64,000 nt of DNA from an uncultured delta proteobacterium (lineage in GTDB: Bacteria; Desulfobacterota; Desulfuromonadia; Geobacterales; DSM-12255): NCBI GenBank assembly GCA_963787125.1, contig CAWBBV010000007.1, positions 416,001-480,000 on the forward strand, given 5' to 3'. Each line of letters begins with the position of its first letter. Position 1 is the stretch's first letter. Positions 21,795 to 50,188 of the stretch are shown one piece after another. The notes under the pieces are model-generated. The model was not told the DNA's origin, did not search any database, and saw only the letters and a program-made list of their open reading frames with translations. The position numbers and the translations under genes are program-made.

Positions 21795-22053
21795 TACTTG
21801 TAAAGAGAGGGGCTATTTAACCGTTTTATGGCGTAGTAGTGTATGGCAGACTGCGAGCCCTTACTTAAGTAAAAAGTTGATTAAATTAAGTAGTTTAGAT
21901 CGGTTTCAGTTGTAAACGTTCAGTAAAAAAAACTGGCGGAAATGAAGCCTATCTAGCTATTTTTATTGATGTTTCACGGCATTCAGCTAATTAACGATTA
22001 AGATATCAGTGACAATATATTTGTACTCGTAACCGAGAGGGAGGTAATTGAAG

Positions 22054-25000
22054 ATGGGAAAATTACTCGTGAATAAAATCCGAGAGATAAATCCACTGGC
22101 AAAAAGGGGGACGTTGTTTTTACTGGCGCTCCTTGTCTCCTTCATAAGTATAATCGGCCCTAATACTGCCGAAGCCGCTATCAGTGTGCAGCAAGGCTTT
22201 GTAGCAGGCGCTACTGCATACAATGTAGGCAATACAACCGGTTTTTACAAAGGGACAACTTTTCCGGGGGCTGCTGTAGTCGGAACAATTGCGGTGGGCG
22301 CCGGTAATGACCGGCTGCTTGTTGTTGCGGTGACAACGGGACTATCGGCAGTTGCTACCCAGACCTGCACAGTGACTTACAATGCTGTGAGCATGACGCA
22401 GGCGACTGGCGACGGTGCAACATCTGCCCGGCAGCACTCCTATCTCTTTTATCTTCCTATGGGTTCTTCAGTCTCCGCAGGTGCAGCATACAGGCCGGTA
22501 GTCACTATAACCGGCGGAACTGCTCAGACTGCAGTTGTCACTTCAGCAGTTTATGCCGGTGTTGATCAGACAACGGTTATAAGGCAAGCCAAGAGTTATA
22601 ATGGCGGCACCAGTACAACAACAACAGTCGGGCCTTTTGCAGCGCCGCTGATGGCTATAACCGCCGGCGACAGAGCTGTTGAGGTGGTAAATCTGTACAG
22701 GACGACCAGCGCTACCCCGCGGACGATGACCACCTGGGCAGCCGGTTGGGCAGTAACTGCCGACATGGCTGGTACTTATGCCCCGTACACTCAGGCCAGC
22801 ATTACCACCACCTCTATGAATACTTATATTCGCAGTAATACAACAGTCACGGCCGGCACCAACTCCTCGCATATTTCCAATGGCACAGCGCGTAAATCTA
22901 TGCATGCGATGGTACTGATCCCGACAGGGGTTACGGTAAGCGCCGGTTCTGTTGTACCTAATCAGACGGTATATGCGGGTGATACTGCAAAAGTTGTTAA
23001 TGCCTTTACTCTGGCTGGTTCCGGACCGGTCACTGCGATTACAGTCACCGGTAATGCCAATACGACAGCAGCAAACATTGCGTCAATTAATATATACAGA
23101 AAAGTCGGCTCGAACCTGACAGCGCTTGAAGGCACAGACGTGCTGATCGGTACCGGCTCTTTCCCTTCGCCGGCAACAGTTACAGTAGCTGAGACTGTCT
23201 CTGCTACGACTAATTATATTATTGTCTACAATATTGCCGCTTCAGCCATCGCCAACGGCACTTCTATAACATTCACTGGTGCAGTAACTGCCCTTACTCC
23301 GGCGGCCGCTTCAATTGCCGATACCGGCGAGACACTGACTCTCTATCCGACCACGACTATAGAGACAGGTGTAGAACCACCGGCAGCCAGATTGTGGAAA
23401 TCAAGTGCTGCCACCAATATGGATGCATTTACGTTACAGCATAATGGCGCCGTTACCGATAATGATACTATCTCGCCGGTAACTGTAACCTTGATTCCTC
23501 AGTACATTTCAGGCGGCACCGGTGGCACGATCTCCAAAATAAAACTGATGGAGATTGTCAGCGCCGACGGTCTGACGGTTTATGGTTCTGCCACTGCCGC
23601 AGCAAACGGCGATATCTGGAATATCACGACGCCGGCATTAATTGCTGATTCTACCCTTAAAACATATTACGTGCGAGTATCGACAGCCGACGTAATTACA
23701 CCTTCGCTTAACGATACCTCCGGCACTCCTCAGGGTTATTACACTTTCACCGGGACGATAACTGCCGCAACTCATAACAAGGCGAACAATAAATTAGTTA
23801 TGGGCGACGGCACCAGCCAGACTCTGGAAATTGACCTTGAGAAACCGATTGGGCCGGCATCTGCAACTGCAACTACCGGCACAAGCGGCGGGCAAATTGA
23901 TCTAGTCTGGGATGCTGCTTCTGATTACAGTGGTGGTTCGCTTGACGCAACAGCTCCATTCGTTGTTCGTCGCGATTTCGTAGATCCTGACCCCGGCTGC
24001 AAAAGCGGCACGGCAGTTACACTTACTCCTGCAAATCAAGCTTCTCATAGCATGACCGATACAGGACTGATTGACACGACCCCTACCAGGTATTACTACC
24101 GGGTATGCGCCATGGATGCACTAGGCAATATCAGTGACGGCGCATCGTCATTTGCAAATGCAATGGTAACCAGTGTTTGCAATATACCACCTTCTGTTAC
24201 TCTTGCGTACGAAGACGGGTCTACAACAGCGACTATGCAGTTGATTAAATCGGATACTACAAGTGCTCCATTTAGATTGCAGATAGCAAACAATGACATT
24301 GGTACCTGTCCTGATGTTGCTTTCACCGTCAGCCTGGCAAATGTTGTCGGAAATGATAGTCATTTCACGAAAACTATTGGTGGTCTGTCCTTCCCGGGCC
24401 TGATCACATTAGGTACCGGTGGTGCCGGCGCAAGTACAGGAAAGGCCTTACTTGTACAAGTTTCCGGGATTGAAGCTGCCGGTGCGCAACAACTTGAGAA
24501 GTATACATTCGGAGTTACTGTTACTTCGCCGGGTAACAGTCATGGCGCTGCTATCACGACTCCATCAGTAACCGGTCTCTTGAACGACATGCCCCCGATT
24601 GTTCACAATAGCGCTAACATGGCCAAATACCAGTATGGCAGTTGGGGCCAAACATATACCTGTGCTACTTGTCACTCAAACAGCACAACCAATATCAAGG
24701 GTATTTATCAGATCATCTCTACTCCAATCGGCAGAAGAAATGTTGTTTTTAATAAAACATCATCTGTTGATGCTGACTGGGACGGAGTTTACGGCAATGA
24801 CAAGCGTGCAAATAAGGACGTTTCCAACAGTGTCTGCGAAGTGTGTCATCACCAGACCAGGCAGCACCAGTATAGTGCCAGTAAACCCTTAGCCGGCCCA
24901 GGTGCTAATGAAACATACAATCCTGATCACCACAACAGTCGTGATTGCGTAAAATGCCATACTCATAACACAGCCTTCCGCTCGATATATGGACTTTGTG

Positions 25001-28000
25001 GTGACTGCCACGGTTTCAAGGCAACAGGTTACTCGCCTGTTGACAGAAGTACCATGGTTAAGGATCTTACCAATGCCCTTGGGCCTAATCCGCCGAACTA
25101 CGGCGCTCACGCAAGGCATAATCAGGCAAAGATTACCTGTTCTGCATGTCATAGCAATACCAATCATGGCTTGGCTACAACCGCCTGGTCCGGCAATAAC
25201 TTTCTCGAAATCGACTTTAATACCAGTAAAGACTCCTACACCGGATTCAACCCCAACGCCAGTATCGTCGGTGGTACCTTTGCCGGCACAAATAACCTCA
25301 ACCAGCCTTTCAAATGGTCGTCGAATCTGTCCACAGTCATTACTGCCAGTCCTGATTATAATGCTTCCTGTACCAACTACTGCCACGGAGCCTGGTTAAA
25401 CAACACCGGTTCGAACACAAATCCAATCTGGGTTGGTGGTCCCGCGCAGGCTGCCTGCGGTACCTGCCATAATGCCTCTGCTGAAGTTCCTCCCCAGTCC
25501 GGCAGCCACTTGAAACATGCCTTAAACTCTGGGATCGGTCTTGGTATAGCCTGTAACAAATGCCATGGCAGCTACTCTAACTATAGTACCAGTAACGCTC
25601 ATATCAATGGCAACGTCGAGTGGAATTTGTCGGTTTATCCTGGCGCAACCTACAACGGTGTAGCAGCTGGTTCTACCGGTGCTCAGGCACCAACAGCCAA
25701 CGCCAATTACGGAACATGCAGCACGCTCTACTGCCACAGTAAAGTTCAGGGGGCTGGGGGTGTAGGAAACCCAAGCACATACGCTTCTCCTAAATGGGGT
25801 GACCCAACAACAGCAACTTGCGGCTCATGCCACGCTGCTAATCCGAATAACTCCGGTTCACACTTGAACCATGAGAATGCAGAAGTTGCTTTTGACTGCC
25901 ACGATTGCCATAGCAACGGTGGTACTACCACAGCTCTGAATCACGGTAATGGCAAAATTGATTTCAAGTTCGTTGGCCTTGCTTCAAATACAAAATACAT
26001 GAGTGTTACAACTGCCAGTGGCGGGTTTGTAACACCTGGTTCCGGTTACGGTGTCTGTTCAAGCAGTAACTGTCACGGCCGTTTCAACCGCGCCTGGGGT
26101 ACACCATCTTCCGGTTTGACACTTTGTGAAAAGTGCCACGGCTCAGCAAACTCATCCGTCGGCTTTTATAACACCAGAGGCCCGTTAGGGACACTCAGCG
26201 TCTACTCAGCCGGCGTTGGTGTTCATGATATTCACATCCAGAACCCTAATTCACCAAGAAAAGCGACTTTTGCACGCTTCACATCTTACGCAGCCGGTTA
26301 CAGTTGCAGGCAGTGTCATAATGTGCCGACCGGGCCGTTTACTGCCGGTCATATTGATACACCACTACCTGCTGAAGTTCCTTTCAGTCATGTCAGCTCG
26401 ATAGCCAACAAAGCCAGCACCTTTGGCTACATGTCCACTGCAACTTTTAACAATGCCACAAAAGCTTGTAGTAATGTCTACTGCCACGGTGCAGGGATGA
26501 ACTCCAACAGGAGCACTGGCAAGTATGTTGGCGCTGCTCCGACATTTGTCAAACAGGACCCAAGCTGGAATACACCTTATCTGACCGGTAACAGCGCAAC
26601 AGATTGCACCAAGTGTCACTCATATCCGCCACCGGCGCCTGATCCTACCTATACCCACTTTGGCGCAACTCTGGCTGATTGTGAAACCTGCCATCAGCAT
26701 CTGACTCCGGGCGGACTTGGGTTCAAGAATAAAAAACTGCACGTTGACGGTAAAGTTGATGGTGGCTGTGACTCTTGCCACGGTTATCCGCCGGTCAATA
26801 ATGTTGTCGGTGCTCCGGGCGGACTGGCAACACCGGCGCAAAACGCGCTTGCCGGCGGAGCAGGAGCTCACAATGCCCATATGCTGCTTCCGCAGCTGGC
26901 TGCCGACAAATGCAAGGCCTGTCATAACGGTTATACAACCGACCCAATGGGTAACACCAAACTGGAAATGGGCTTTAACGGGCTTGGCGGTCTGGTGACA
27001 ACCGGTACCTTTACCGGTTATACCAATAGCGTTAACGGGCCAAAATGGCAGATACCATCAAACAGTGCCGGGACTGTGATGGTCAAGTCTAACGTCCAGG
27101 CTGCTGTCTGCTCCAACGTTTACTGCCACGGTGGTGGGTCGTCATCTTCGCCGGTAGTCCGGCCAGCATTGGGTGGCGGAGCTAATACCACTCCAAACTG
27201 GGAAGTCCCTGCCGTCTGCGGCGACTGCCACGGCATTGACGCTGCCAGCGCACCAAGCGGCGGTTCACACCCAAGGCACGCCGTCACAATCTCATCACTT
27301 GTCTGTGACTCCTGTCATGGTGTTACTGCTGTCAACGGCACTCACGTTAACGCCTCAGTCAGCTGGCACCTTGATAGTACACTCATGGGTGCAAATGCCA
27401 CCTACAACGGGATGTCATCCGGATCGCTCCCGGGTCTGGCCCCCCGCGGAAATGTTACAGCCGGCGACGATTACAGAACCTGTAATAATGTTTATTGTCA
27501 CAGTACCATTCAGAGCGGAAACGGCACGGGCGTTCCCACCTACAAGTCGCCACGCTGGGGCACAGATAACGGCACACTCGGCTGTAACGGCTGCCATGCA
27601 AACATGGCGACGGATGCTGTCAATGCAACCGGCAGCCATGTGAAACATGCAAATACCACCTCAGGCATGGGCGTTTCCTGCGGCTACTGTCACCAGGATG
27701 GTGGCGACGGTACGCAGCAGCATGCGGACGGTTCTGTTTTCATAAACTTTACCAGCTATATTGGCGGCACCTACAATGTCAGCGGTGGTACCGCTTTCCT
27801 TACCGGTATTCAGAAGGTCTCCCGTTCGGCTGCCTACAGCACCTGTTCCACCACCTTCTGTCATGGAACAAACCCTTCACCGCAGTGGGGTGTAGCAGGC
27901 ACAAACTGCCAGACCTGTCACTCCGCCAGCGCTGATAAAACACTCAGCCCCGGCTGGTCAGGTCGTCACACTACCCACTATAACTACTCGACTGCGCCGG

Positions 28001-30081
28001 GCACCTACAATGAAACTCTTCTCGATCAGAGCAGCGTTAACAAGTACAGGTTCAACTGTAATCATTGTCACGATACCGACTCCACCAAACACAGTCTCAA
28101 GCCTGCATCTGCAGACAGTGCCGCCCGTATTTTCTTCGGTGCGTCATCAGCAACACCTGCAACAAGCAGCAAACGTGGTATCTATGCAGCCGGAACACCG
28201 ATTGTCGCAACTGACAACGGCTTTAAATTTACATCAGGTTCGTGCAGCACCAGTTACTGTCACTCCAACGGCCGTGGCGGTGCACCTAAGCAAGCGTTCC
28301 TTAACTGGACAACACGTCCATCAGCCGCAGGTGTAAACTGCACCTTCTGTCACGATGGCAAGTCAGCAACTGCAACTCCTTCAACCCTGAGCCCAAGACA
28401 CGACAAGCATATGAATCCACTTGCCACGAACTCGCTTCTGGGTGTTGGTAGTGGTTACAACTGCGTTGACTGCCACGCACAGGTAATTACTAATATAAAC
28501 AACATCTCTATAGCTAACAAGAAACTGCACGTTAATACGACCCTTAACTACTCAGGTGCAAGGGCGTTCAAGTCCGGTTACACTGTCGGCACAGGCAGTT
28601 GTACAACTTACTGCCACTCCAACGGTAACAAGAATGCGACCGGTACGCCTGTCTTCGTCAGTATGACCGGCAGCAAGCGCTGGACCGATGTCGGCACTAT
28701 CACCACCTGTAACAAGTGCCATGGTCGCAGCAACGCCTACGGCTATCCAGATTACGCCAATGGTGGAGCTAATAACGTCAACTCGAACCTGCATTTCGGT
28801 CACATGTCGAGTTTGAGAAGTACTACAGCTTGTTCGGATTGTCACCGTAAGACAGTTGATACGCTGGTAGCTAACAAATTTAGACCATACTCATCACTGC
28901 ACATAAGTGGCGGCGCAAATGTTAACTTCAACAGCGCCAAGGCTTATATCGGTACCAAGGCAACTGTCGTCACAGCCGGCAACCAGGTAACCTGCAGCAC
29001 GGTAGTATGTCATGGACAGGGTGCTCCTGTCTGGGGTGCTTCCACGACTGTTGGCCAGTGTCAGAAGTGCCACGGTTCAAAAGCAACAGCCTTTGGAACC
29101 TTCTCCTCACCACAGGTTGCTCCAGGCTTCGGTACTGACGGTACTGATACCTCCATGGTCAACAAACTGCCGACAGATCCACGAGTCGGCGCGCACCAGC
29201 GACACCTCACCTCCAGTGCCATTTCAGCGCCGATCAAGTGCGGTGAGTGTCACGTAACAGTTACCAGTATCCGATCTGCAAATCATTGGAACTACTCAAC
29301 GGCTACACTGACGTTTGCCGGCAGAGCTGTCCTTAATTCACATTCACCATCTGTATCGCGTACAGCTGGTGTCATGCAGTGTAGCAATGTTTATTGCCAC
29401 ACACTCACAAACAGTACCGGCACTGTTACTGCGCCGTTCTGGAATATGACCGGTATGGTTAAGGAGACCGGAACAACAGTCGCTGAATGTACCAAGTGTC
29501 ACGCCATGCCGCCTCCATCTACGACACACACTGGTAAACTCATCAGCAATTATTCATCGGTTTCGAAGATTTACAGTGTTTGCGGTACATGCCATTACAC
29601 GCTGAGCACCACAGCAACCACTGTTGCCAATGCGTTTACCGATAAAAAGACTCATATTAACGGCGTAGTTGAAGTAATTCTGGTCTGTAACGGTTGCCAC
29701 GACTACGATACAACCAGCAGTGGAACAGCTTGGGGTAAATCAAATTACGGTAGCTTCAATGAAAGTAATGGTGCCCACGTCAAGCATATTGAGTTCTTGA
29801 AATCGCGTAACCCTGGTATGATTCTTGATCCAAATAATGACACTTTTGGCGGCGCGACTTTCTTGGCTATATGCGGGCAATGTCACTCGAGCAACGGCGT
29901 CGCGGATCACAAAACGGATTTGAGTGTGAATTCGCGTAACATCTCCTTGACTGGGCGCGGTTTTGGTCAGGTTAATGGAACTTACAATGGTAACAGCGGT
30001 ACATCGTCTTCAGTTAATCCGAAGTCATGTTCAAATACTGACTGTCATTATAAAACCTCGCCAATCTGGTCTACCTACTAA
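22054..30081 (+). CDS. Giant secreted multiheme c-type cytochrome (Geobacter CxxxxCH/CxxCH type), about 43 heme-type motifs
   Basis: Signal peptide (AEA); about 870-aa heme-free N-terminus with an FN3-like segment; manual count 31 CxxCH, 10 CxxxxCH, 2 CxxxCH; GGAGG spacing favours the ATG at 22054. Confidence 0.92.
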   Translation: MGKLLVNKIREINPLAKRGTLFLLALLVSFISIIGPNTAEAAISVQQGFVAGATAYNVGNTTGFYKGTTFPGAAVVGTIAVGAGNDRLLVVAVTTGLSAVATQTCTVTYNAVSMTQATGDGATSARQHSYLFYLPMGSSVSAGAAYRPVVTITGGTAQTAVVTSAVYAGVDQTTVIRQAKSYNGGTSTTTTVGPFAAPLMAITAGDRAVEVVNLYRTTSATPRTMTTWAAGWAVTADMAGTYAPYTQASITTTSMNTYIRSNTTVTAGTNSSHISNGTARKSMHAMVLIPTGVTVSAGSVVPNQTVYAGDTAKVVNAFTLAGSGPVTAITVTGNANTTAANIASINIYRKVGSNLTALEGTDVLIGTGSFPSPATVTVAETVSATTNYIIVYNIAASAIANGTSITFTGAVTALTPAAASIADTGETLTLYPTTTIETGVEPPAARLWKSSAATNMDAFTLQHNGAVTDNDTISPVTVTLIPQYISGGTGGTISKIKLMEIVSADGLTVYGSATAAANGDIWNITTPALIADSTLKTYYVRVSTADVITPSLNDTSGTPQGYYTFTGTITAATHNKANNKLVMGDGTSQTLEIDLEKPIGPASATATTGTSGGQIDLVWDAASDYSGGSLDATAPFVVRRDFVDPDPGCKSGTAVTLTPANQASHSMTDTGLIDTTPTRYYYRVCAMDALGNISDGASSFANAMVTSVCNIPPSVTLAYEDGSTTATMQLIKSDTTSAPFRLQIANNDIGTCPDVAFTVSLANVVGNDSHFTKTIGGLSFPGLITLGTGGAGASTGKALLVQVSGIEAAGAQQLEKYTFGVTVTSPGNSHGAAITTPSVTGLLNDMPPIVHNSANMAKYQYGSWGQTYTCATCHSNSTTNIKGIYQIISTPIGRRNVVFNKTSSVDADWDGVYGNDKRANKDVSNSVCEVCHHQTRQHQYSASKPLAGPGANETYNPDHHNSRDCVKCHTHNTAFRSIYGLCGDCHGFKATGYSPVDRSTMVKDLTNALGPNPPNYGAHARHNQAKITCSACHSNTNHGLATTAWSGNNFLEIDFNTSKDSYTGFNPNASIVGGTFAGTNNLNQPFKWSSNLSTVITASPDYNASCTNYCHGAWLNNTGSNTNPIWVGGPAQAACGTCHNASAEVPPQSGSHLKHALNSGIGLGIACNKCHGSYSNYSTSNAHINGNVEWNLSVYPGATYNGVAAGSTGAQAPTANANYGTCSTLYCHSKVQGAGGVGNPSTYASPKWGDPTTATCGSCHAANPNNSGSHLNHENAEVAFDCHDCHSNGGTTTALNHGNGKIDFKFVGLASNTKYMSVTTASGGFVTPGSGYGVCSSSNCHGRFNRAWGTPSSGLTLCEKCHGSANSSVGFYNTRGPLGTLSVYSAGVGVHDIHIQNPNSPRKATFARFTSYAAGYSCRQCHNVPTGPFTAGHIDTPLPAEVPFSHVSSIANKASTFGYMSTATFNNATKACSNVYCHGAGMNSNRSTGKYVGAAPTFVKQDPSWNTPYLTGNSATDCTKCHSYPPPAPDPTYTHFGATLADCETCHQHLTPGGLGFKNKKLHVDGKVDGGCDSCHGYPPVNNVVGAPGGLATPAQNALAGGAGAHNAHMLLPQLAADKCKACHNGYTTDPMGNTKLEMGFNGLGGLVTTGTFTGYTNSVNGPKWQIPSNSAGTVMVKSNVQAAVCSNVYCHGGGSSSSPVVRPALGGGANTTPNWEVPAVCGDCHGIDAASAPSGGSHPRHAVTISSLVCDSCHGVTAVNGTHVNASVSWHLDSTLMGANATYNGMSSGSLPGLAPRGNVTAGDDYRTCNNVYCHSTIQSGNGTGVPTYKSPRWGTDNGTLGCNGCHANMATDAVNATGSHVKHANTTSGMGVSCGYCHQDGGDGTQQHADGSVFINFTSYIGGTYNVSGGTAFLTGIQKVSRSAAYSTCSTTFCHGTNPSPQWGVAGTNCQTCHSASADKTLSPGWSGRHTTHYNYSTAPGTYNETLLDQSSVNKYRFNCNHCHDTDSTKHSLKPASADSAARIFFGASSATPATSSKRGIYAAGTPIVATDNGFKFTSGSCSTSYCHSNGRGGAPKQAFLNWTTRPSAAGVNCTFCHDGKSATATPSTLSPRHDKHMNPLATNSLLGVGSGYNCVDCHAQVITNINNISIANKKLHVNTTLNYSGARAFKSGYTVGTGSCTTYCHSNGNKNATGTPVFVSMTGSKRWTDVGTITTCNKCHGRSNAYGYPDYANGGANNVNSNLHFGHMSSLRSTTACSDCHRKTVDTLVANKFRPYSSLHISGGANVNFNSAKAYIGTKATVVTAGNQVTCSTVVCHGQGAPVWGASTTVGQCQKCHGSKATAFGTFSSPQVAPGFGTDGTDTSMVNKLPTDPRVGAHQRHLTSSAISAPIKCGECHVTVTSIRSANHWNYSTATLTFAGRAVLNSHSPSVSRTAGVMQCSNVYCHTLTNSTGTVTAPFWNMTGMVKETGTTVAECTKCHAMPPPSTTHTGKLISNYSSVSKIYSVCGTCHYTLSTTATTVANAFTDKKTHINGVVEVILVCNGCHDYDTTSSGTAWGKSNYGSFNESNGAHVKHIEFLKSRNPGMILDPNNDTFGGATFLAICGQCHSSNGVADHKTDLSVNSRNISLTGRGFGQVNGTYNGNSGTSSSVNPKSCSNTDCHYKTSPIWSTY

Positions 30082-30143
30082 TCGGGGGGAGCGCAAAGAT
30101 GAGACTTTACTTAATGAATGAATATATTCACAGGAGATTTACA

Positions 30144-33100
30144 ATGAAACTAAGAAGCGCTCTCCTTCTTGTAGTGGCTGGAACAGTTTGTGCGCTGAGT
30201 AGCCTACTCAGTCCGCAGCTGGCATCAGCGTCAGTGGATGCCGCCACCCAGTGGCCGTCAATGCCGCCAATTGTCAGTAACGCTGCCGCAGTTGGTAACG
30301 TTTCTGGTAAGTTTACCGCCGGAGCCGGCAATAACAGGCTCTTGCTGGTGGCGGTGGCGACCGAGTATACATCCGGTAATCCGGTAATTGCTGTTGGTGG
30401 AGTGACTTACGGTGGCACGGCGTTGACAAATATAGCCGCGGCGACTAACACCACCGGCCTCAACAAGATCTGGGTAGGCTATCTAGTGCTTGGAACGGCA
30501 ACCGCGAGTTCGACAGCTACCATAGCGGTGACAAACACCGGTACAGCCGGACTAGTTGCTACTTATGTTACAGCAGCTGTTTACAACGGTGTCGATCAGA
30601 CCACACCGATCAGCGGTTCCGGATCTGCTTCAGGGACAACGGCAGCTCTTACTACTACTAACTTTGCCGTGAACGGTATCAACGGCAATAACGGTCTTGG
30701 GGTTTTTATCTCAAACCGTACCAGCTCAACCCTCTCCACCACCGGAACAGCAACCAAGGTCAGGGAATATGTCGGCCTTAATATGACTTTATCTGCAGGT
30801 GCTGAATCAGTTGTCACAAACGCCGCTGATAATGAGACAGTTACTGCGGCTGCAGCAGTTTCAGGGGTTCTTGCCGGTATCGGCCTTAACCCGGTTGCAA
30901 AGGTAGCTACTCTCACAACCTGCGGTGACTGCCACGGCTATCCGCCAAATGATGGCTCAGCCCGTAACGTCCCTCCCGGGCAGTTCCTTGGTTCACACGA
31001 CAAGCACAGCGGTGCAAACGCTAACCAGTATTCATTCCTCTGCACCCAGTGTCACTACAACAATACAACCAACAAGCATCAGCAGGGTTACAAGAACATT
31101 ACCGGCAGCAGTGTGCCTGGCAATGCATACAGCGCAACCGGTGGTAAGAAAGTGGCTGATAGCAATAGCCCGGTTTTCGGTTACTGCAACAACGTCACCT
31201 GTCACAGTAACGGTAGAACAACCCCTCGCCAGTTTGCCACCGGTCTTAACTGGGGAACTGCCGATACCTGTCTCTCTTGTCACGGTGGCCGCAGCAACTC
31301 TACCAACCTGTATGCAAAAAGTACAAACAGCTTTAACCTTTCCACTACCCACGGCCAACATCTGGGCAAATACAGCTACACCCAGATTAACTGTAATATG
31401 TGCCACGGCAAGACAGCATCCAGTGCTACCGCCACCAGTGGTCATACCGCTCTTAAAGACTACTCAGGTGTTGGCTATCATGCCAACGGTTCTAAAACAG
31501 TCCTCTTTACCAATATCGCTTATGGTTCATATACCTCCTACAAGGCAAACAAAACCTGTGTAAACGTTGCTTGTCACGGTGGTAAAACCCGTGGTGTCTG
31601 GAATGAGCAGACTACAGTAAATACCGATAACACCTGCGTTCACTGTCATGGCGCTGCCGGCACTTTAGCTTCAGTTGCCAACAGTGGCTATAACCGTCGC
31701 TTCTTTGCTCCCGGCTGGAAAAAGGTCGGTACCAGCACCGACCAGACCGCCTCCACCAACGACATCAGGGTTGGCGCTCACTTCAAGCACCTTTCCAGTG
31801 CCTACATGAGAAACATAAAGTGTAATGAATGTCACCTGGTACCGCAGACTCCATTTGATGCCGGTCACACTGACACTCCTCGTTATGCCTCGCAGACGCT
31901 CTCTTTTAATCAGGCATCATCTGCTACAATCACAATTGGCGTTACTTCAGGTACTGCAATTTCACGCCTGGCCGCTTTTGGCGGCTATACTAACGGTGTT
32001 CCAGGTAAAGCAGTCACCTGTTCCAGTGTTTACTGTCACGGTAATCGCCTCAAGACCGGCGATACCTCAGGTTCATACAAGAAACCGTATTGGAACTACT
32101 CAGCGATGATCAATTACACTGACCCCGCTAACTCCTGTAACAAATGCCACGGTCTTCCGCCATCAGCCGGTACATCAATAACAACCCATACTGGCAAGAC
32201 TCTTACCGGGGTAAACGCCTGCGCCAACTGTCATGGCTCTGTTGTTAACGCATCTGGTCAGATCATCAATAAAGAGCTTCATATCAATGGTCAGGTTGAT
32301 GTTACCGCCGGTCACGAGTATAGCTTCGGTGGCTGGCGCCACATGCCGGGCGGCATCGGCTCCATCAAGGCTGCCTCACTCACTGATTTCACCGCCTGTA
32401 CCGGCTGTCACTCCGGCACATCCGGCGGCAGCTACCCGGTTGCAAGCCGTGGCCAGGCTTCGCTATTGGTCTGTACGGTCTGTCACATTAACAACCCGAA
32501 CTTCTACACTACGGGCTCCAAAGGCAGTTGCGGAGACTGCCACGGCAGCAATACCGCCGGGTACTATTCAACAGGTCAGCCAGACGGTAACGTCTTTCCG
32601 AACAATAGCGGCAGTCACTCCGCCCACATCGCCCAGGGTTATGCCTGTGCTGATTGTCACAGTGGCCGCGGTACTGGAGTGAAAACTCACGGCAACTACT
32701 CAGGTGTCAAGAAGACTACCTATATGAATATATCGATTGCCTTCAATACCACCAAAACCGGTACGGCAGTCAAATACGTCAACGGTGGCGGTACGCTTGC
32801 TAATACCTCCTGCAACACTTCCTGGTGCCATGGCAGTAAGTCACCTGCCTGGGGTGCGCCGGTTCCTGCCCAGCAATGCGTTCGCTGCCACGGTTCGCAG
32901 ACGCTTTCTTATGCCAATAACTCCTCTGCAACAATCGCCCCTGGTGGCAGTAATATTGATACCAACAGGACTGCCGGCGTAACCAATAGAGGCGGTGTGC
33001 ATCAAGAACACCTCAATGCAACTGATGGCATATCTGCCAAGATAAAATGCGGAGCCTGCCACGCCGGGCTTTCTACCAAGGCAGTTAATCACGCTCAACT

Positions 33101-35585
33101 CGATAACAGAACAACGGCAACAGTTGTTTTTAACGGTCTTGCTGTCGCTAATAGTCATGGAGCAGCTGGGATAGTTCGTACAAGTGGCATAATAACCTGT
33201 AACAACACCTACTGTCATACGGCGAAGAACAATTCCGGTCTCAACATGGCACCTACATGGAATAGTTCAACCTATCTGCCAGCTACCTTGACGGTTGCTG
33301 CTTGTACTCAGTGCCACGCGCTTCCTCCTTCAAGTGTTTCTTCTCACACGGGACTATCCGTAACATCATTCCCGATAGGTACTCAGTGTGGCGCTAATTG
33401 TCACTTGAACCTGAACACCGCAGCCACCACCTACGCTACCATATTTAATGACCCTTCTCAGCACATTGATGGAATTATTCAAGGTGGTGACTGCATAAGC
33501 TGCCACTCGGCTGTACAGGGTGCTCGTGCTCCGGTTGTCGGCCAGTTTGCTTCCCAATCTCACCATATACAGGGTGGCGAAGTGTTAACCAAGGCTTCTT
33601 GCTATAAGTGCCACTGGGAAGCTGATATTAATGGTGACGAAGACCCTGCCTATCATAGTAAAACTTCCGGTAAAGGTGTCAGCCTGGTCGTCTGGAAAGG
33701 TTCTGCTACACGACCAACTGTTGCTTCGGCTGCAACCCTGGTTTCTTACACAGCCAACGGCAGCAGAAGACAAATCCTGAAGCTTAATGATGTTTGTCTC
33801 GGTTGTCATGATTCGACAGTCAGAGCGACACCACCGTTCGGTACTTTCGCAACCGACCAGTACTCACCAGAACCGCGGATGACACCGGTACTTAGCAAGA
33901 CAAGTATTCTTTCCAGGTACTCTAGCACTCGTACTGTGCCTTGGAGTAACTACTCATTTACCAACTCTTCCGGTCAGGTTTCGCAGTACGGCACCAATAC
34001 CAAGAAGAACGTTACCAAAGCTCTTTCCGGCCACGGTAATGCAATCAAAAATCAGTTCCCGAGCTGGAATTCAACAACTGGTGGGTCTGGTGAAGATGAA
34101 GTCTCCGGCGTAAATGTTGATATTGCTGCCAGCCAGACGTTAAGTAAGTATCGTAACGTTCTTTGCTACGACTGCCACAACTCTCACGGCTCTGCTGCAG
34201 TTGGTGTTACCAGTTCCTACTCCAGCGCCACCGGTCGTTACAAAGGTGGATTGCTTAAAACTACTACTAACGGTCAGGGCGGCTATACAAATACTTACAC
34301 GCCTACTGCCAGAACCATCGCCTACAAGAGCTACAGTACACTGACAACACATGCAGCGACCTTCAATGCCGGCGCCAGCATCTGCAACGACTGTCATAAC
34401 ACCGACACTCGCAAGGTTACCTACGCAGGCGGCAGACCTTGGTCCATCCTGACAACCTACAGCTCCACCAAGCCGATTGTCGGTTACTGGAGCACACCAT
34501 ACTTCGATAACTACACATTCAATTCAGTCAAGCGGACTACCTACAAAATGGGTGGTGCACCAGGGACCATTAAAGACCAGCGTAAACCGATGGGCGGTCA
34601 CTACGGCTCCAGCGCCAACCTGGGTAATTACTCCGGTGTATCTCACAGCCAGAACATCAACGGCCTCTGTACTCCATGCCACGATCCGCACGGTGTATCC
34701 AGCGCCATGTCCGTTGTCAACCGTGGTAAATCAGTACCGATGCTCAAAGGCACCTGGGTAACCTCGCCATACCGCGAAGACAAAGCAACACCGGTCGTCA
34801 AACGTGGCGGCGGCAGTAACTTCACCGGTATGCCGGCAATGGGCGCAATGCCTGGTTACAACATTGACCAGAACTCATTGATCAACCTTGCGGCTCCAAC
34901 TGCCGGTGGCGCTGCACAAACAACAACCAAGAGCAATCAAAGGAAGCAGGCATTCACTGTCTTCCCAGGCGCTGCTGGCAACGCCCTTGCGCTGCACACA
35001 GAGAAAGATCCGGATCCGGCAGTTAATGCTGCTGCCAACTTCGCCGGTCTTTGTGTCGGTTGTCACCAGAAAGCGACACTGACCAACTCCACCGTTGCAC
35101 CTGCTGCCAGTAACTGGATGAGCAAAGAGCGGGTTCACCAGTCAGTAGCAGGCTGGGCAGCAACAAGCGGAGTCAATTTGAACGGCACTGTTCATGCTTA
35201 CACCTGCTCCAAGTGCCATGCGCCGCACGTTTCGCGTCTGCCACGGCTCATGATAACCAACTGCCTTGACGTAAGGCATACGAAACAGTCGGTTTCCGGT
35301 GGAGCGATTTCGGCCACAACCGTCGGCACCCCTGGTTTCACCTACGGCAACAACAACCAGAGCTTTGCAACGTCTGGTCGGGGTGCAGGCCGCTTCCCCT
35401 CTGGTGGTTCAAGGTACTCGGGAACACCTGGTTCAGCCCAGAACAACGGGCCGTGGTACTTCCAGACAGTTCAGCCGGCAGGTGTTACTTATCCTTCAAA
35501 CTGCCATAACGGAGTGAACGCAGGCGGCGGAGCAACAACTTACGCTCCAAACTTGCAGATCTGGAACAAAAAAACCCGCTGGTAA
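30144..35585 (+). CDS. Large secreted multiheme c-type cytochrome, about 29 heme-type motifs
   Basis: AGGAG RBS then ATG at 30144; signal peptide (ASA); manual count 23 CxxCH, 5 CxxxxCH, 1 CxxxCH. Confidence 0.92.
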   Translation: MKLRSALLLVVAGTVCALSSLLSPQLASASVDAATQWPSMPPIVSNAAAVGNVSGKFTAGAGNNRLLLVAVATEYTSGNPVIAVGGVTYGGTALTNIAAATNTTGLNKIWVGYLVLGTATASSTATIAVTNTGTAGLVATYVTAAVYNGVDQTTPISGSGSASGTTAALTTTNFAVNGINGNNGLGVFISNRTSSTLSTTGTATKVREYVGLNMTLSAGAESVVTNAADNETVTAAAAVSGVLAGIGLNPVAKVATLTTCGDCHGYPPNDGSARNVPPGQFLGSHDKHSGANANQYSFLCTQCHYNNTTNKHQQGYKNITGSSVPGNAYSATGGKKVADSNSPVFGYCNNVTCHSNGRTTPRQFATGLNWGTADTCLSCHGGRSNSTNLYAKSTNSFNLSTTHGQHLGKYSYTQINCNMCHGKTASSATATSGHTALKDYSGVGYHANGSKTVLFTNIAYGSYTSYKANKTCVNVACHGGKTRGVWNEQTTVNTDNTCVHCHGAAGTLASVANSGYNRRFFAPGWKKVGTSTDQTASTNDIRVGAHFKHLSSAYMRNIKCNECHLVPQTPFDAGHTDTPRYASQTLSFNQASSATITIGVTSGTAISRLAAFGGYTNGVPGKAVTCSSVYCHGNRLKTGDTSGSYKKPYWNYSAMINYTDPANSCNKCHGLPPSAGTSITTHTGKTLTGVNACANCHGSVVNASGQIINKELHINGQVDVTAGHEYSFGGWRHMPGGIGSIKAASLTDFTACTGCHSGTSGGSYPVASRGQASLLVCTVCHINNPNFYTTGSKGSCGDCHGSNTAGYYSTGQPDGNVFPNNSGSHSAHIAQGYACADCHSGRGTGVKTHGNYSGVKKTTYMNISIAFNTTKTGTAVKYVNGGGTLANTSCNTSWCHGSKSPAWGAPVPAQQCVRCHGSQTLSYANNSSATIAPGGSNIDTNRTAGVTNRGGVHQEHLNATDGISAKIKCGACHAGLSTKAVNHAQLDNRTTATVVFNGLAVANSHGAAGIVRTSGIITCNNTYCHTAKNNSGLNMAPTWNSSTYLPATLTVAACTQCHALPPSSVSSHTGLSVTSFPIGTQCGANCHLNLNTAATTYATIFNDPSQHIDGIIQGGDCISCHSAVQGARAPVVGQFASQSHHIQGGEVLTKASCYKCHWEADINGDEDPAYHSKTSGKGVSLVVWKGSATRPTVASAATLVSYTANGSRRQILKLNDVCLGCHDSTVRATPPFGTFATDQYSPEPRMTPVLSKTSILSRYSSTRTVPWSNYSFTNSSGQVSQYGTNTKKNVTKALSGHGNAIKNQFPSWNSTTGGSGEDEVSGVNVDIAASQTLSKYRNVLCYDCHNSHGSAAVGVTSSYSSATGRYKGGLLKTTTNGQGGYTNTYTPTARTIAYKSYSTLTTHAATFNAGASICNDCHNTDTRKVTYAGGRPWSILTTYSSTKPIVGYWSTPYFDNYTFNSVKRTTYKMGGAPGTIKDQRKPMGGHYGSSANLGNYSGVSHSQNINGLCTPCHDPHGVSSAMSVVNRGKSVPMLKGTWVTSPYREDKATPVVKRGGGSNFTGMPAMGAMPGYNIDQNSLINLAAPTAGGAAQTTTKSNQRKQAFTVFPGAAGNALALHTEKDPDPAVNAAANFAGLCVGCHQKATLTNSTVAPAASNWMSKERVHQSVAGWAATSGVNLNGTVHAYTCSKCHAPHVSRLPRLMITNCLDVRHTKQSVSGGAISATTVGTPGFTYGNNNQSFATSGRGAGRFPSGGSRYSGTPGSAQNNGPWYFQTVQPAGVTYPSNCHNGVNAGGGATTYAPNLQIWNKKTRW

Positions 35586-35593
35586 CAGCAAAT

Positions 35594-35618
35594 GGCGGGG
35601 ATCATCGCGATCCCCGCC
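35594..35618. other. Strong stem-loop without a + strand U-tract
   Basis: ggcggggatc-atcgc-gatccccgcc followed by taaaaa; may stabilise mRNA rather than terminate it. Confidence 0.6.
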
Positions 35619-35667
35619 TAAAAATAAGCATGATAAGTCTGGTAAATAATAAAAGGAGGTGCCTGCA

Positions 35668-35727
35668 ATGAAAAAGAGCTACGTTACACCGAAAATCACA
35701 GGTAGTGCAGTTGTTCATCCTTGCTAA
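35668..35727 (+). CDS. 19-aa peptide MKKSYVTPKITGSAVVHPC, putative RiPP-like precursor
   Basis: AAGGAGGT RBS 7 nt before the ATG; YxxP leader-like motif; C-terminal His-Pro-Cys; flanked by a hairpin and a terminator; below the ORF-track size cutoff. Confidence 0.7.
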   Translation: MKKSYVTPKITGSAVVHPC

Positions 35728-35749
35728 CACAACCGCATAAATTATGATG

Positions 35750-35783
35750 AAAATGGGGTCGTGCTTGCGACCCCATTTTTTTT
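35750..35783 (+). terminator. Rho-independent terminator
   Basis: aaaatggggtcg-tgcttg-cgaccccatttttttt. Confidence 0.85.
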
Positions 35784-40393: not shown

Positions 40394-42280
40394 ATGTGCG
40401 GAGTTGTCGGGATATTCTCCCCTGCAGAGCGGGAGAGACTCTGGCCGGAAACGGCACTACAGTCAATGCTCCAGCGGGTAAGGCACCGGGGCCCGGATGG
40501 CGAGGGGAGCTACTCTGAACCAGGACTATCTCTGGGGCATGCCCGGTTGGCCGTACTCGACATTTCAGTGGCCGGTCAGCAGCCGATGTTTTCAGCTGAC
40601 AGACGCTTTGTGCTCAGCTTTAACGGCGAAATTTACAATTTTCAGGAGTTGAGAGCGCAGCTTGAAGGGTTGGGGTGCCATTTCATCTCCAGATCCGATA
40701 CAGAGGTGCTGCTGGCGGCATGGAGCCAGTGGGGTGAAGCGTCTCTCGACAAGCTTGAAGGGATATTTGCTTTCGCTCTTTTTGATCGGGAGTCGAGGTC
40801 ACTGTATCTTGTTCGTGATCATCTCGGAGTAAAACCGCTTTTTTACCAGCAAAATGTTGGGACGTTTTTTTTCGCCTCGGAACTGCAGGCGCTTTTCAGT
40901 GGAATCAACCCAGTGCCTGATCCTGATGCTGAAGATCTGGACACCTACTTCACCTTCAATTATCTCCCCGCTCCCCGTACCGGGCTTGCAGGGGTAAAAC
41001 AGCTTGAGCCGGGCAGTCTGCTCAGGATGGATGCCGGTGGCCTCAGTGTAAGACCTTACTGGTCGCCTCCCTACCGGGAAAAGCTTATCCCCTGGAGTTT
41101 GGCAACGGTTGACCGCTTCAGAGAGATTCTCTTCAAGTCGGTCAAAAGTCAATTGGTGTCTGATGTTCCCCTTGGGGTATTCCTTTCAGGAGGGCTTGAT
41201 TCCTATGCGGTGGCGCTGGCAGCCGCTGCAACCGGTGAATTGCCGAAAGCATACACAATCGGTTTTGCTGAACATAAGTTTGATGAGAGGCCTGAAGCCG
41301 CCGAATATGCGGCGTATCTCGGAATAGCGCAGGCGAAAATGCAATTTGAATGGAGCGAGTCGGCCATTGAAAAAACGCTTGCTTCCATGGGAGAGCTGCT
41401 CGCGGATGCCTCCTGCTTTCCGCTGTATCAGCTTGCGGCTTTTGCGAGGAAAGAGGTGACTGTCATACTCGCAGGTGACGGGGCTGATGAGCTTCTGGCC
41501 GGTTACGGCACATATATGGCGAGCGATTTGACCCCTTTTGCACGGATGCTCCCAGCTGCTGCACGTTCAATGCTCAGGCGTGGAGTAGGATTTCTACCTT
41601 CCGGCAATGAACGTTACGGCAGGAGGATGGTTCTTGAGAGGTTTCTGGACGCAGCTGATGAAGGTGAGAAGCGTGATCATGCTTCTTTTCGAAGGATATT
41701 CAGCAACAGCCTGAAACAGAGGCTATACAATCAGGAGTTTCTCAAGGAAGCGGCTGCATTCGATCCGGTAGGCGAGTATGCCGATTTCATGAGCAGGATA
41801 CCTTCTGGCAGGTCTTACCTTTCTGCAAGACAGCACGCTGATCTTTTCTTCCATCTGCCGAGTATTCTGGCCAAGGTAGACAGGATGAGCATGGCTCACG
41901 GACTTGAAGTGCGGGTGCCTCTCCTCTCAAAAGAGATTGTAGAGTTCTGTATCAATCTTGATGACGAGGCAAAGCGAACTCTTTTTTCAGGAAAGAGGAT
42001 AATGAAGTCCGCGCTCTCGGGGCAGATACCGCCATCGGCATTGAAAAGGCGAAAAGCCGGATTTCTGCCGCCGGTTGACCGGTGGTTCCGGGCTGAGCCA
42101 ATGAACAAAGTTTTCGGCGATTATCTGCAGACCGCAAGAAGTTTCCTGCCGACGCTGCATTGGGATGAGGTGGAGCGTTTCTGGCAGGATCATAAACGTG
42201 GAGAGGTCGAGGGTGGGTTCGTGCTTCTTGGTATCTTGCAGTATATCAACTGGAGCATAATGCTGAGAAAAAAGCTATGA
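40394..42280 (+). CDS. asnB: Asparagine synthase (glutamine-hydrolysing)-like amidotransferase
   Basis: MCG N-terminal nucleophile, HRGPD, FNGEIYN, RDHLGVKPL, LSGGLDS, GDGADELLAGY, KVDRMSMAHGLEVRVP. Confidence 0.9.
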   Translation: MCGVVGIFSPAERERLWPETALQSMLQRVRHRGPDGEGSYSEPGLSLGHARLAVLDISVAGQQPMFSADRRFVLSFNGEIYNFQELRAQLEGLGCHFISRSDTEVLLAAWSQWGEASLDKLEGIFAFALFDRESRSLYLVRDHLGVKPLFYQQNVGTFFFASELQALFSGINPVPDPDAEDLDTYFTFNYLPAPRTGLAGVKQLEPGSLLRMDAGGLSVRPYWSPPYREKLIPWSLATVDRFREILFKSVKSQLVSDVPLGVFLSGGLDSYAVALAAAATGELPKAYTIGFAEHKFDERPEAAEYAAYLGIAQAKMQFEWSESAIEKTLASMGELLADASCFPLYQLAAFARKEVTVILAGDGADELLAGYGTYMASDLTPFARMLPAAARSMLRRGVGFLPSGNERYGRRMVLERFLDAADEGEKRDHASFRRIFSNSLKQRLYNQEFLKEAAAFDPVGEYADFMSRIPSGRSYLSARQHADLFFHLPSILAKVDRMSMAHGLEVRVPLLSKEIVEFCINLDDEAKRTLFSGKRIMKSALSGQIPPSALKRRKAGFLPPVDRWFRAEPMNKVFGDYLQTARSFLPTLHWDEVERFWQDHKRGEVEGGFVLLGILQYINWSIMLRKKL

Positions 42281-48297: not shown

Positions 48298-49160
48298 CTT
48301 GCCGCAGTGAGTGGATAAATTTGATCATCGATAAGCTCGCTTGTATTGACTGCCGGTCAAGTCGCTTGAAATTAGATGAATTGTCTGGAGAACTAAGATG
48401 TCAGGATTGTGACGGCATATTCAAGATTGTTAATAACATTCCCTCTTTTGTAGCGGCTGAGTTGATGCACTGCAGTGAAGTTCCTCTTCTTGAACGCGAA
48501 AAGTTTCTAGAAATGAAGAAAACAGCCTATTCAGGCGGTTCTTTTGTAGGCCGGATGTACAACCATTATCACCGCTATGCAGCGCAGAAACGGATTGAGT
48601 TGAGCGAGAAGCGGCTTACGGTAGATATCGGCTTCGGGGTCGGTGAGCACTATCCGTTCATCACGGAAAAAGAGAAAGTTGCCGGAGCGTTCATCGGCGT
48701 AGATCTAGACCGGTTCAAGCTGGAGCATTTTTGCTCGCTCCACCCCGACATACCGGTGCTGCAGGCGAGCGCATTCAGGCTGCCGTTTGCTGCCGATAGT
48801 GTCGCTGTGGTGCAGTTGCTGGCAACGCTTGAGCATTTCCCCCCGGACGAGATAACCGGCCTGCTTGATGAAGCTCTGAGGATACTGCAGCCCTGGGGGG
48901 CCCTGATCGTCTGTTATCCGGCAGAAGGCGGGCTGCTGCTGGGGCTCTGCCAGAGAGTAATGCACGCTTACCTTAAGAGGCGGACAGGTTTTGACCTTGA
49001 CCAGGGGGCGATCCACAGGCATCTCACCGGTGCAGGGGAGATAAGGGCTATCCTGGGTGGGCGCAAAGAGCTTGAGCGACAGGAGAGCAGTTTCTATCCT
49101 TTCTGGATCAGGTCAGTCAATCTTTCGCTGTTTGTAAACGAGATCTACAGGAAAAGGTGA
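48288..49160 (+). CDS. Class I SAM-dependent methyltransferase with Trm112-like Zn-finger N-terminus
   Basis: LACIDC...LRC.DC...F.I.NNIP; VDIGFGVG motif I, GVD, LPF..DS, TLEH, RIL.PWG; true start probably near 48321. Confidence 0.8.
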   Translation: MVLTCRSEWINLIIDKLACIDCRSSRLKLDELSGELRCQDCDGIFKIVNNIPSFVAAELMHCSEVPLLEREKFLEMKKTAYSGGSFVGRMYNHYHRYAAQKRIELSEKRLTVDIGFGVGEHYPFITEKEKVAGAFIGVDLDRFKLEHFCSLHPDIPVLQASAFRLPFAADSVAVVQLLATLEHFPPDEITGLLDEALRILQPWGALIVCYPAEGGLLLGLCQRVMHAYLKRRTGFDLDQGAIHRHLTGAGEIRAILGGRKELERQESSFYPFWIRSVNLSLFVNEIYRKR

Positions 49161-50188
49161 CAGGGGTGCGGTTTCAGCATTACATTCAAAAGCTCGACCT
49201 CTTTCTGACCCTGCTGCTTAAGGGGCGGCTTTCCTGGCGCAAGCTGCGTAATTTTTTAGCCAATGCCACTGCCTACAGGAAGCTTGTCGAGGTGTCAGGC
49301 ACGGCGCCGGCTGTTGTCCTCTTCGATGTCTCCAACCGTTGCAACCTGCACTGCAGAACATGCCGCAGGTCGACAACCGATATCGTCGATCTCTCCGGGC
49401 AGACGGAGAAACCTGTGAAGCTCGGTGACATGGCCCTTGACGGGTATTTGCGAATAATCGATAGCCTTTCTAAGGATATGCTCCTGGCGACCCTTTATGT
49501 TTCCGGCGAACCGCTTCTGAACAGGGAGATTGTGGCGATGGTCGCGCACACCTCCCAAAAGAGAGTTGCTTCGATGCTTTCAACCAACGGGATGCTGCTG
49601 GACGACTCGCTCTCAACCAGCCTCCTTGAAGCCGGTCTTGATTATCTGAAAGTGGCAGTAAGCGGGTTCACCCAGGACGTCTACGGGATCTATCATCTGG
49701 GCGGAGATGTCGCCAGGGTTCTGGAGAACGTAGCGAAATTCGAGCGGATTCGTAGACAGATCGGCAAACGCTGCCTGGTGGTGATTGATTATATCCTTTT
49801 CGAACATAACCGGCATCAGGCGGACGACATCAGGCGTTTCTGCCGCGAAAACGGCATCAGATTCTCGCTTCGCTATGGTCGGACGCTTGAGGGTTCTGAG
49901 TTGCAGAGCCCCGCTGAGAGCAAGCCGCACTATCAACCTAAAACCGGGCCGTGCGACTGGCTCTGGAAGATTATGGTGTTCTGTGCGGACGGCAGGTCTG
50001 TCCCCTGCTGCCAGTTTGCCACCTGTGCCGAGTCCCCTTTTGTGATGGGAGTCGGCGGCGAAGCTGCTGCAACGATTTGGAACGGCACTGCTTACAGGGA
50101 GCTGCGCAGAGTTCACGCAGCAAGCGGGCGCAAGGGACTACCGCTTTGTGACGGCTGCTTTTATTCAGGCATTGATTTCCAGAGTTGA
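49157..50188 (+). CDS. Radical SAM protein with SPASM/twitch domain
   Basis: CNLHCRTC, GEPLL, STNG; C-terminal C..LW...DG...PCC...IWN...C..C. Confidence 0.88.
   Translation: MTGVRFQHYIQKLDLFLTLLLKGRLSWRKLRNFLANATAYRKLVEVSGTAPAVVLFDVSNRCNLHCRTCRRSTTDIVDLSGQTEKPVKLGDMALDGYLRIIDSLSKDMLLATLYVSGEPLLNREIVAMVAHTSQKRVASMLSTNGMLLDDSLSTSLLEAGLDYLKVAVSGFTQDVYGIYHLGGDVARVLENVAKFERIRRQIGKRCLVVIDYILFEHNRHQADDIRRFCRENGIRFSLRYGRTLEGSELQSPAESKPHYQPKTGPCDWLWKIMVFCADGRSVPCCQFATCAESPFVMGVGGEAAATIWNGTAYRELRRVHAASGRKGLPLCDGCFYSGIDFQS

Follow-up and report, generated by a model that had tools for sequence, protein, structure and literature searches.

A VHPC-tailed peptide gene behind two giant multiheme cytochromes is probably a precursor gene of the GeoRSP radical SAM system

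Introduction

Peptide pathways in which a radical SAM enzyme depends on an RRE are already known as a kind, and several of them bear on the locus described here. Mycofactocin, whose system comprises the precursor MftA, the PqqD-like protein MftB and the radical SAM enzyme MftC, is a cofactor and not an antibiotic; the PQQ system likewise combines a small peptide (PqqA), a PqqD chaperone and a radical SAM/SPASM enzyme (PqqE). MftC, AhbD, NirJ and BlsE carry out oxidative decarboxylation, PqqE and SkfB cross-link peptides, and the radical SAM/SPASM enzymes of the sactipeptides and ranthipeptides form thioethers from Cys to carbon. Lasso peptides require an Asp or Glu at core position 7–9 for the isopeptide ring, and their core has at least about 14 residues. 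GeoRSP (TIGR04302, TIGR04303, and TIGR04304) is a named but uncharacterized cassette, an enzyme trio without a characterized function that is found in metal-reducing Geobacter-type bacteria and, according to the present data, in Thermodesulfovibrionia-type genomes of a second phylum, and for which NCBIfam names three proteins and holds no model of a substrate peptide. To our knowledge, no GeoRSP substrate has been published.

Here, we describe a 19-codon gene in the window, by which we mean the whole stretch of 64,000 nucleotides that was analyzed. The open reading frame (ORF) is a real gene, and its product is one of a widespread group of very small peptides whose last residues are Val-His-Pro-Cys (VHPC). 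This family co-occurs with the GeoRSP cassette and is often linked to it, and comparison of sequences makes the encoded peptide most likely the ribosomal precursor, that is, the substrate, of the GeoRSP system, to which it would be a new part. The probable substrate family, the VHPC tail, the multi-copy layout dispersed behind giant cytochromes and the spread into a second phylum are all new.

Results

A peptide gene at the end of a giant cytochrome unit

The peptide gene follows two giant cytochrome genes on the same strand, and the features of the unit are as follows.

22048..30081, + strand: giant multiheme c-type cytochrome of 2677 aa, first gene of the unit (Pfam Cytochrome_C7 and GSu_C4xC__C2xCH), with 31 CxxCH and 10 CxxxxCH motifs
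30099..35585, + strand: second giant multiheme cytochrome, of 1828 aa (NCBIfam TIGR01904, 78.7 bits; Pfam cytochrome families), with 23 CxxCH and 5 CxxxxCH motifs
35594..35618, + strand: GC-rich intergenic hairpin between the cytochrome stop and the peptide gene, from folding and sequence
35653..35660, + strand: Shine-Dalgarno (SD) sequence AAGGAGGT, of the consensus type, 7 nt before the ATG
35668..35727, + strand: 19-codon peptide gene MKKSYVTPKITGSAVVHPC plus TAA, probable GeoRSP precursor, from sequence and family match
35754..35783, + strand: intrinsic terminator with an 8-bp GC-rich stem, a 6-nt loop and eight T, from folding

The original prediction had proposed a hidden peptide gene with a near-perfect ribosome-binding site, an upstream hairpin devoid of a U tract and a strong terminator, and all of these are present in the sequence. 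The ORF runs from the ATG at 35668 to a TAA stop at 35725–35727, and an AGGAGG-type site equivalent to AAGGAGGT precedes nearly all members of the family. The upstream hairpin (dG −22.3 kcal/mol, z −3.7; 0 of 200 shuffles were as good) is immediately followed by UAAAAAUAAG, so that it has no U tract. Because of this, co-transcription of the peptide gene with the giant cytochromes is plausible, and the hairpin may serve in transcription pausing, as a processing site or in mRNA stabilization. The terminator, with its stem at 35754–35775 and the eight T at 35776–35783 (dG −22.1 kcal/mol, z −5.3; 0 of 200 shuffles as good), was found by folding and was not reported on the + strand by a simple terminator scan, probably because A-T pairs lengthen the stem into the T run. 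Stable hairpins also lie 3' of most other copies of the family, and their sequences are unrelated to each other.

Past the terminator, a long same-strand cluster (35864–63353) has the look of a surface-glycan or protein-glycosylation island and not of a RiPP cluster. It encodes GT2 glycosyltransferases, a nitroreductase, an asparagine-synthase-type amidotransferase, a GDSL esterase-like protein and a NodU-like carbamoyltransferase, together with TPR/PMT_2 and YfhO-like membrane proteins, a methyltransferase, an amine oxidase and three radical SAM genes, and it is interrupted by a DDE transposase (55170–56318). The three radical SAM genes had been pointed out in the original prediction and are indeed present downstream in the window, two of them with a SPASM domain, as assigned by domain matches.

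49157–50185, same strand as the peptide gene: radical SAM gene with a SPASM domain
57770–58891, same strand as the peptide gene: radical SAM gene with a SPASM domain
60992–62032, same strand as the peptide gene: radical SAM gene with the radical SAM domain only

The peptide family is conserved and under purifying selection

A DNA search of 41 related genomes gave matches in 10, and those outside the closest relatives spanned only query bases 85–168, which correspond to the SD sequence and the ORF up to its stop. At all 11 distinct loci read, the ORF was exactly 19 codons long, stood behind an AGGAGG-type site and was followed by a hairpin of differing sequence. An ORF with an SD sequence could arise by chance, but the conservation of both could not, and the ORF is therefore a real gene. 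The family consensus is M-K-K-x-Y-V-x-P-[KR]-[VI]-V-G-S-A-x-V-H-P-C-stop, with a length of 19–20 aa. Conservation of YxxP and of a terminal HPC had been put forward as a check, and the Y, the P and the last four residues, VHPC, were invariant in an alignment of 20 sequences. Profile matches to the peptide were found in 66 of 239 genomes of its own order, with 1–7 copies each, and in 20 of 401 genomes sampled from its own phylum. A sample of a second phylum, the records of which are labeled Nitrospirae, Nitrospirota or Thermodesulfovibrionia, gave matches in 13 of 151 genomes.

The variation within the family has the pattern of a coding sequence. Among 49 distinct DNA versions encoding 34 distinct peptides, collected with a pattern that demanded the VHPC ending, the summed entropies at the first, second and third codon positions were 8.3, 7.6, and 23.1, and the NG86 dN/dS was about 0.16 (538 of 1176 pairs usable). 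Profile matches that were read under a less strict pattern all had the VHPC ending as well. Two to four synonymous codons are used for each of the invariant V, H, P and C, and all three stop codons (TGA, TAA, and TAG) end ORFs of the family. These data demonstrate that purifying selection acts on the amino-acid sequence of the peptide. A reading of the TGA after the Cys codon as selenocysteine was ruled out, because TAA (15) and TAG (1) also close the ORF.

The peptide is absent from the catalogues and the literature searched. A Pfam scan of the peptide gave no match, and a scan of the whole of NCBIfam (E ≤ 0.1) gave nothing above a curated cut-off. The only match in that library was to the leader positions of the lasso model lasso_cyano (13.3 bits against a cut-off of 33, E 0.06), which is consistent with the earlier proposal that the N-terminal half may resemble a leader recognized by PqqD or RRE domains. 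None of six natural 20-aa members of the family occurred among about 15 billion predicted proteins. In view of this absence from the protein collection and the curated families, the gene would be missed by annotation-based screens, despite its up to seven copies per genome. Nothing on the peptide or on GeoRSP was found among the papers listed in searches of the literature outside subscription journals, and the Geobacter passages of the 2011 mycofactocin paper (PMC3023750) do not treat a GeoRSP/VHPC peptide system.

A complete GeoRSP cassette lies on another contig of the genome

No PqqD domain was found on the contig of the window, which bears out the earlier remark that none was to be seen near the peptide. 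The whole genome has two, both on other contigs: one is in a GeoRSP cassette on contig C5 and the other in a lasso cluster on contig C20. A scan with the GeoRSP models, which had been suggested as a check, placed TIGR04302, TIGR04303 and TIGR04304 all above their cut-offs in this genome, and the cassette is complete at C5:3–2523.

C5:3–344: cupin, first gene of the cassette on the contig
C5:334–657: PqqD-family peptide chaperone (TIGR04302, 145.9 bits; cut-off 100)
C5:668–1648: radical SAM/SPASM enzyme (TIGR04303, 582 bits; cut-off 400)
C5:1648–2523: SPASM-only protein (TIGR04304, 300.8 bits; cut-off 300)

This cassette is the probable maturase of the window peptide, as judged from its models and from the distribution of the two partners described below. 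The copy in the window was the only match to the peptide found in this genome. A second copy was sought in front of the NosD-like gene at C10:4169–6595, the place that it occupies in other genomes, and none was there. The GeoRSP cluster is apparently split here by an assembly gap (C10:2669–8095 and C5:1–9000), with the NosD-like gene of C10 running toward the contig start and C5 starting with the cupin, PqqD, radical SAM and SPASM genes. The lasso cluster, with its PqqD protein (B1), B2 protein and ABC exporter, occupies C20:4097–7294.

Peptide and enzyme occur together

The original prediction had named beforehand, as a finding that would count against it, the lack of a co-occurring PqqD and radical SAM/SPASM partner, and such a partner was found in all three samples of genomes. 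Within the order (239 genomes), 61 genomes had both the peptide and the TIGR04303 enzyme, with the overlap counted by hand, while 5 had the peptide only, 6 the enzyme only and 167 neither. The corresponding numbers were 18, 2, 4, and 377 in the sample of 401 genomes from the same phylum and 12, 1, 0, and 138 in the sample of 151 genomes from the second phylum. Fisher p values were 1e-43 for the order and 2e-25 for the same-phylum sample, both of them overstated by the kinship of the genomes, because related genomes are not independent. More telling than these values is the coincidence of peptide and enzyme, in presence and in absence alike, within genera that are split for the trait (g7, 2/4; g15, 4/9; g23, 1/24; g16, 5/6; and also g1). 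Moreover, all of five genomes of another phylum that were chosen solely for having the enzyme held the peptide, in one to five copies.

The match between the two is imperfect. Four of the five peptide-only genomes of the order are 66–81% complete. Two genomes that are both 97% complete, G178 and G541, have the peptide and no enzyme above the cut-off; in G541, the peptide stands in the context of a ResA-like thiol-disulfide oxidoreductase and a glycosyltransferase. In the six enzyme-only genomes, no peptide-like ORF was present near the enzyme gene, and in four of these genomes the enzyme gene lies on a contig of less than 12 kb; in G154 and G192, which carry the enzyme on long contigs, no peptide was found in the genome or near the enzyme. 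GeoRSP-type radical SAM genes with 61–71% identity were observed in the second phylum (loci L088, L090, L092, L103, L105–L108, L111, and L113). Since these GeoRSP genes stand in Nitrospirae, Nitrospirota and Thermodesulfovibrionia records, the system is not confined to relatives of Geobacter, despite its name.

Position of the peptide gene relative to the cassette and other genes

Adjacency, as would be sought for a GeoRSP substrate, was found in some lineages, where the peptide gene comes directly behind the radical SAM gene. In eight genomes of other families, the enzyme gene is followed on its own strand, after 33–145 nt, by the peptide gene. In the five of these that were read on the DNA, the order is, in full or in part, PhnD-like binding protein, TPR, YedE, NosD-like, PqqD, radical SAM, peptide. 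A different arrangement was seen in 22 genomes of the order (hand count), where a copy precedes the enzyme gene by 5.7–8.9 kb and shares its strand. These copies head a conserved cluster, in which a cytochrome is followed by the peptide and by a NosD-like beta-helix protein of 833–874 aa, then by an Ig-like/DUF4198 protein, OpuAC-like and ResB-like proteins and a permease of the Ni/Co-efflux or ArsP type, and at the end by a cupin or TPR/NosD-like proteins, the PqqD, radical SAM and SPASM genes, a PhnD-like binding protein and YedE. Among the genes of the clusters read, none for a leader peptidase was seen. Among 31 species-representative loci, only 5 had a copy within 10 kb of the enzyme gene, and thus the linkage is often genome-wide and not local, as it is in the present genome.

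Beyond the cassette, the neighborhoods of the peptide share a few themes. Out of 33 peptide loci read, 12 had a multiheme cytochrome directly upstream on the same strand, counting two (L003 and L011) with 116-aa fragments that have no heme motif and no Pfam match and were assigned by their tail alone. The C-terminal tail of the second cytochrome of the window, ...SNCHN...GG...WNKKTRW, is common to cytochromes that precede peptide copies elsewhere, and 10 of the 12 end in the shared form ...NCHN...GG...WN..W. Eight of the 33 loci had another large protein of the surface type directly upstream (fn3, LamG, glycine-rich, DUF2341 or DUF1349). Among the other 13 are copies that adjoin a BchE-like B12 radical SAM gene with CbiQ/CbiO, precede CbiM, follow IscU, follow two rhodaneses and are themselves followed by YedE, or precede an AhbD-like radical SAM/SPASM gene. 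The themes of these neighborhoods are heme proteins, metals, and sulfur or selenium. The constant neighbors of the cassette, namely the YedE sulfur/selenium transporter, the PhnD-like and NosD-like proteins and the metal permeases, point to a role in handling sulfur, selenium or metal.

Comparison with described systems

One described system that the locus resembles is mycofactocin, with which it shares a very short precursor, an invariant extreme C-terminus that is the likely site of the chemistry, a separate PqqD-type chaperone and a related radical SAM/SPASM enzyme. The MftC model ranked second to fourth among the matches of GeoRSP-type enzymes, with 160–216 bits (best 216.4; this genome 171.7), all below the TIGR03962 cut-off of 265. 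Unlike mycofactocin, however, the VHPC precursor is multi-copy and dispersed, and no MftD, MftE or MftF homologues were seen in the clusters read. An identity with MftA was considered and rejected, as the tail is VHPC instead of Gly-Val-Tyr (GVY) and the enzyme falls under the cut-off for MftC. The PQQ system is built from the same three kinds of component (small peptide, PqqD chaperone and radical SAM/SPASM enzyme), whereas the VHPC peptide has no Glu...Tyr pair, no PqqB or PqqC genes were seen, and the PqqE model scored 135.6 against a cut-off of 381.

The leader type K-K-x-Y-x-x-P-x-[LIV] is shared with lasso peptides, and the GeoRSP PqqD protein weakly matches the lasso RRE TbiB1 (E 0.008). 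In contrast to lasso precursors, the VHPC peptide contains neither an acidic residue nor a ring-forming core, and no B2 or C enzymes are adjacent. As for sactipeptides and ranthipeptides, a Cys-bearing core and a radical SAM/SPASM enzyme are common to both, and by analogy a single thioether formed from Cys19 is possible. The VHPC peptide differs in having only one Cys, at the very end, and the PapB, StsB, AlbA and SkfB models gave 72–127 bits on the GeoRSP enzyme against cut-offs of 300–850.

Alternative explanations

The peptide might instead be a genuine small protein that works in its unmodified form, for example with the His-Pro-Cys tail as a carrier or chaperone for metal, sulfur or selenium, and that merely shares a module with GeoRSP. 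Copies do adjoin genes for the CbiM/CbiQ/CbiO cobalt-nickel transporter, IscU, rhodaneses and YedE; permeases of the Ni/Co-efflux and ArsP types and NosD-like proteins belong to the clusters; the peptidase expected for a leader was not met there; and the two fairly complete genomes G178 and G541 carry the peptide without the enzyme. Yet the gene directly behind PqqD and the radical SAM/SPASM gene in eight genomes has the standard layout of an enzyme and its substrate, and the N-terminal half is leader-like, so that we regard an unmodified protein as unlikely, although it is the strongest of the rival readings. We know of no role for a PqqD-family chaperone besides presenting a peptide. Far less probable is the reading that takes the conserved element for an RNA feature of the 3' UTR or the ORF for a product of chance. 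The element does sit between two stable hairpins at the end of an operon, but its variation is concentrated at third codon positions, its length and frame are kept across two phyla, and the start codon, SD sequence and stop are always there while the flanking hairpins vary in sequence. This codon pattern in particular disfavors an RNA-only reading, which we consider barely credible.

Two further alternatives keep the peptide as a modified precursor and assign it to other enzymes. The first assigns the peptide, as substrate, to one of the three radical SAM enzymes of the window, whose genes follow 13–26 kb downstream on its own strand and contig and in two cases encode a SPASM domain. All three, however, score far below every NCBIfam cut-off, their genes stand among glycosyltransferases, TPR/PMT-like membrane proteins, a methyltransferase and a transposase, and no PqqD gene shares their contig. 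Relatives of the gene at 57770–58891, the only one of the three that was profiled, were found (E ≤ 1e-60) in 3 of the 239 genomes of the order, whereas the peptide occurs in 66 of them. Thus, these scores, context and distribution speak against the suggestion that the maturase might be found among the radical SAM/SPASM genes of the window, and this assignment is very improbable, only marginally less so than the RNA reading. According to the other, the lasso cluster on C20 would have the peptide as its precursor. Besides the weak match to the lasso-model leader, the genome has the lasso PqqD protein (B1), the B2 protein and an ABC exporter, and the window contains an asparagine-synthase homologue at 40394–42280. 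The latter, though, is an ordinary glutamine-hydrolyzing asparagine synthase (408.8 bits; cut-off 267.1) that stays far below the cut-off of the lasso cyclase (210 vs. 525), and at most about eight or nine residues, too few for a lasso core, follow the leader-like part. Neither the window peptide nor any family member read has an Asp or Glu, and because of this missing acidic residue a lasso precursor is excluded; we hold it to be the least probable of the alternatives, with virtually no weight.

Discussion

The preferred reading, a precursor matured by GeoRSP, suggests a simple course of events. The PqqD chaperone would grip the basic N-terminal half, MKKxY-x-x-P-[KR]-[VI], in the manner of other RRE-dependent pathways; the pattern K-K-x-Y-x-x-P-x-[VI] of this half is the motif bound by lasso RREs. 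The chaperone would then offer the short tail, G-S-A-x-V-H-P-C (in the original prediction, a putative core of about GSAVVHPC), to the radical SAM enzyme for modification of the C-terminal end, and the product would be a small compound bearing a thiol and an imidazole. After its own model, the GeoRSP enzyme best matches AhbD, NirJ2 and MftC, and the closest solved structures are PqqE (6c8v, E 3e-21), BlsE and SkfB. Because these closest characterized relatives carry out such chemistry, we favor, if the peptide is indeed the substrate, an oxidative decarboxylation and/or a cross-link at the terminal Cys, with a confidence that falls somewhat short of even; a simple thioether and the insertion of sulfur or selenium are the alternatives. 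As the sole precursor gene of this genome lies at the 3' end of the giant cytochrome operon, the peptide would be made when the cytochromes are made.

The place of the peptide gene behind giant cytochromes, together with the sulfur/selenium and metal genes round the cassette, suggests a cofactor or metal ligand derived from the peptide. In its widest form, this idea would have GeoRSP mature the VHPC peptides into a small cofactor or ligand carrying sulfur, selenium or metal, the production of which is wired to the giant extracellular cytochromes and other large surface proteins behind whose genes the precursor copies lie, and we offer it only tentatively, as a rather unlikely case overall. If true, it would provide metal-respiring anaerobes with a counterpart of mycofactocin or PQQ and add a hitherto unseen component to extracellular electron transfer. 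A concrete candidate substrate of 19–20 aa makes the orphan GeoRSP system testable at the bench with three or four genes and a synthetic peptide.

Several individual loci show further arrangements of the family and its neighbors. The tail pattern ...YGSNCHN(A/S)xxAGG...WN(K/N)(K/R)xxW-stop, with a lone Cys-His, was seen in the window (35440–35585) and at L002, L004–L007, L012, L016, and L021, and many of the non-heme proteins upstream of other copies have a Cys among their last five residues (...GNCP, ...NTCQ, ...NVCR, ...DVCPP, and ...QVCN). In genus g16, copies lie inside cobalt/nickel ECF transporter operons (L023, L026, and L027), with one copy between a BchE-like B12 radical SAM gene and CbiQ/CbiO and another directly upstream of CbiM. 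At L035 (G024:C1:1165710–1168766), a copy precedes an AhbD-like radical SAM/SPASM gene by about 170 nt, with a terminator-like hairpin between them, and the radical SAM/SPASM gene reaches 449.6 bits with the heme b synthase model (cut-off 500). Finally, L077 (G335:C145:5001–11004) contains three tandem peptide genes, MKKTVY[VL]KPKVVGTSSVHPC, within 2.4 kb, each with its own SD sequence and hairpin.
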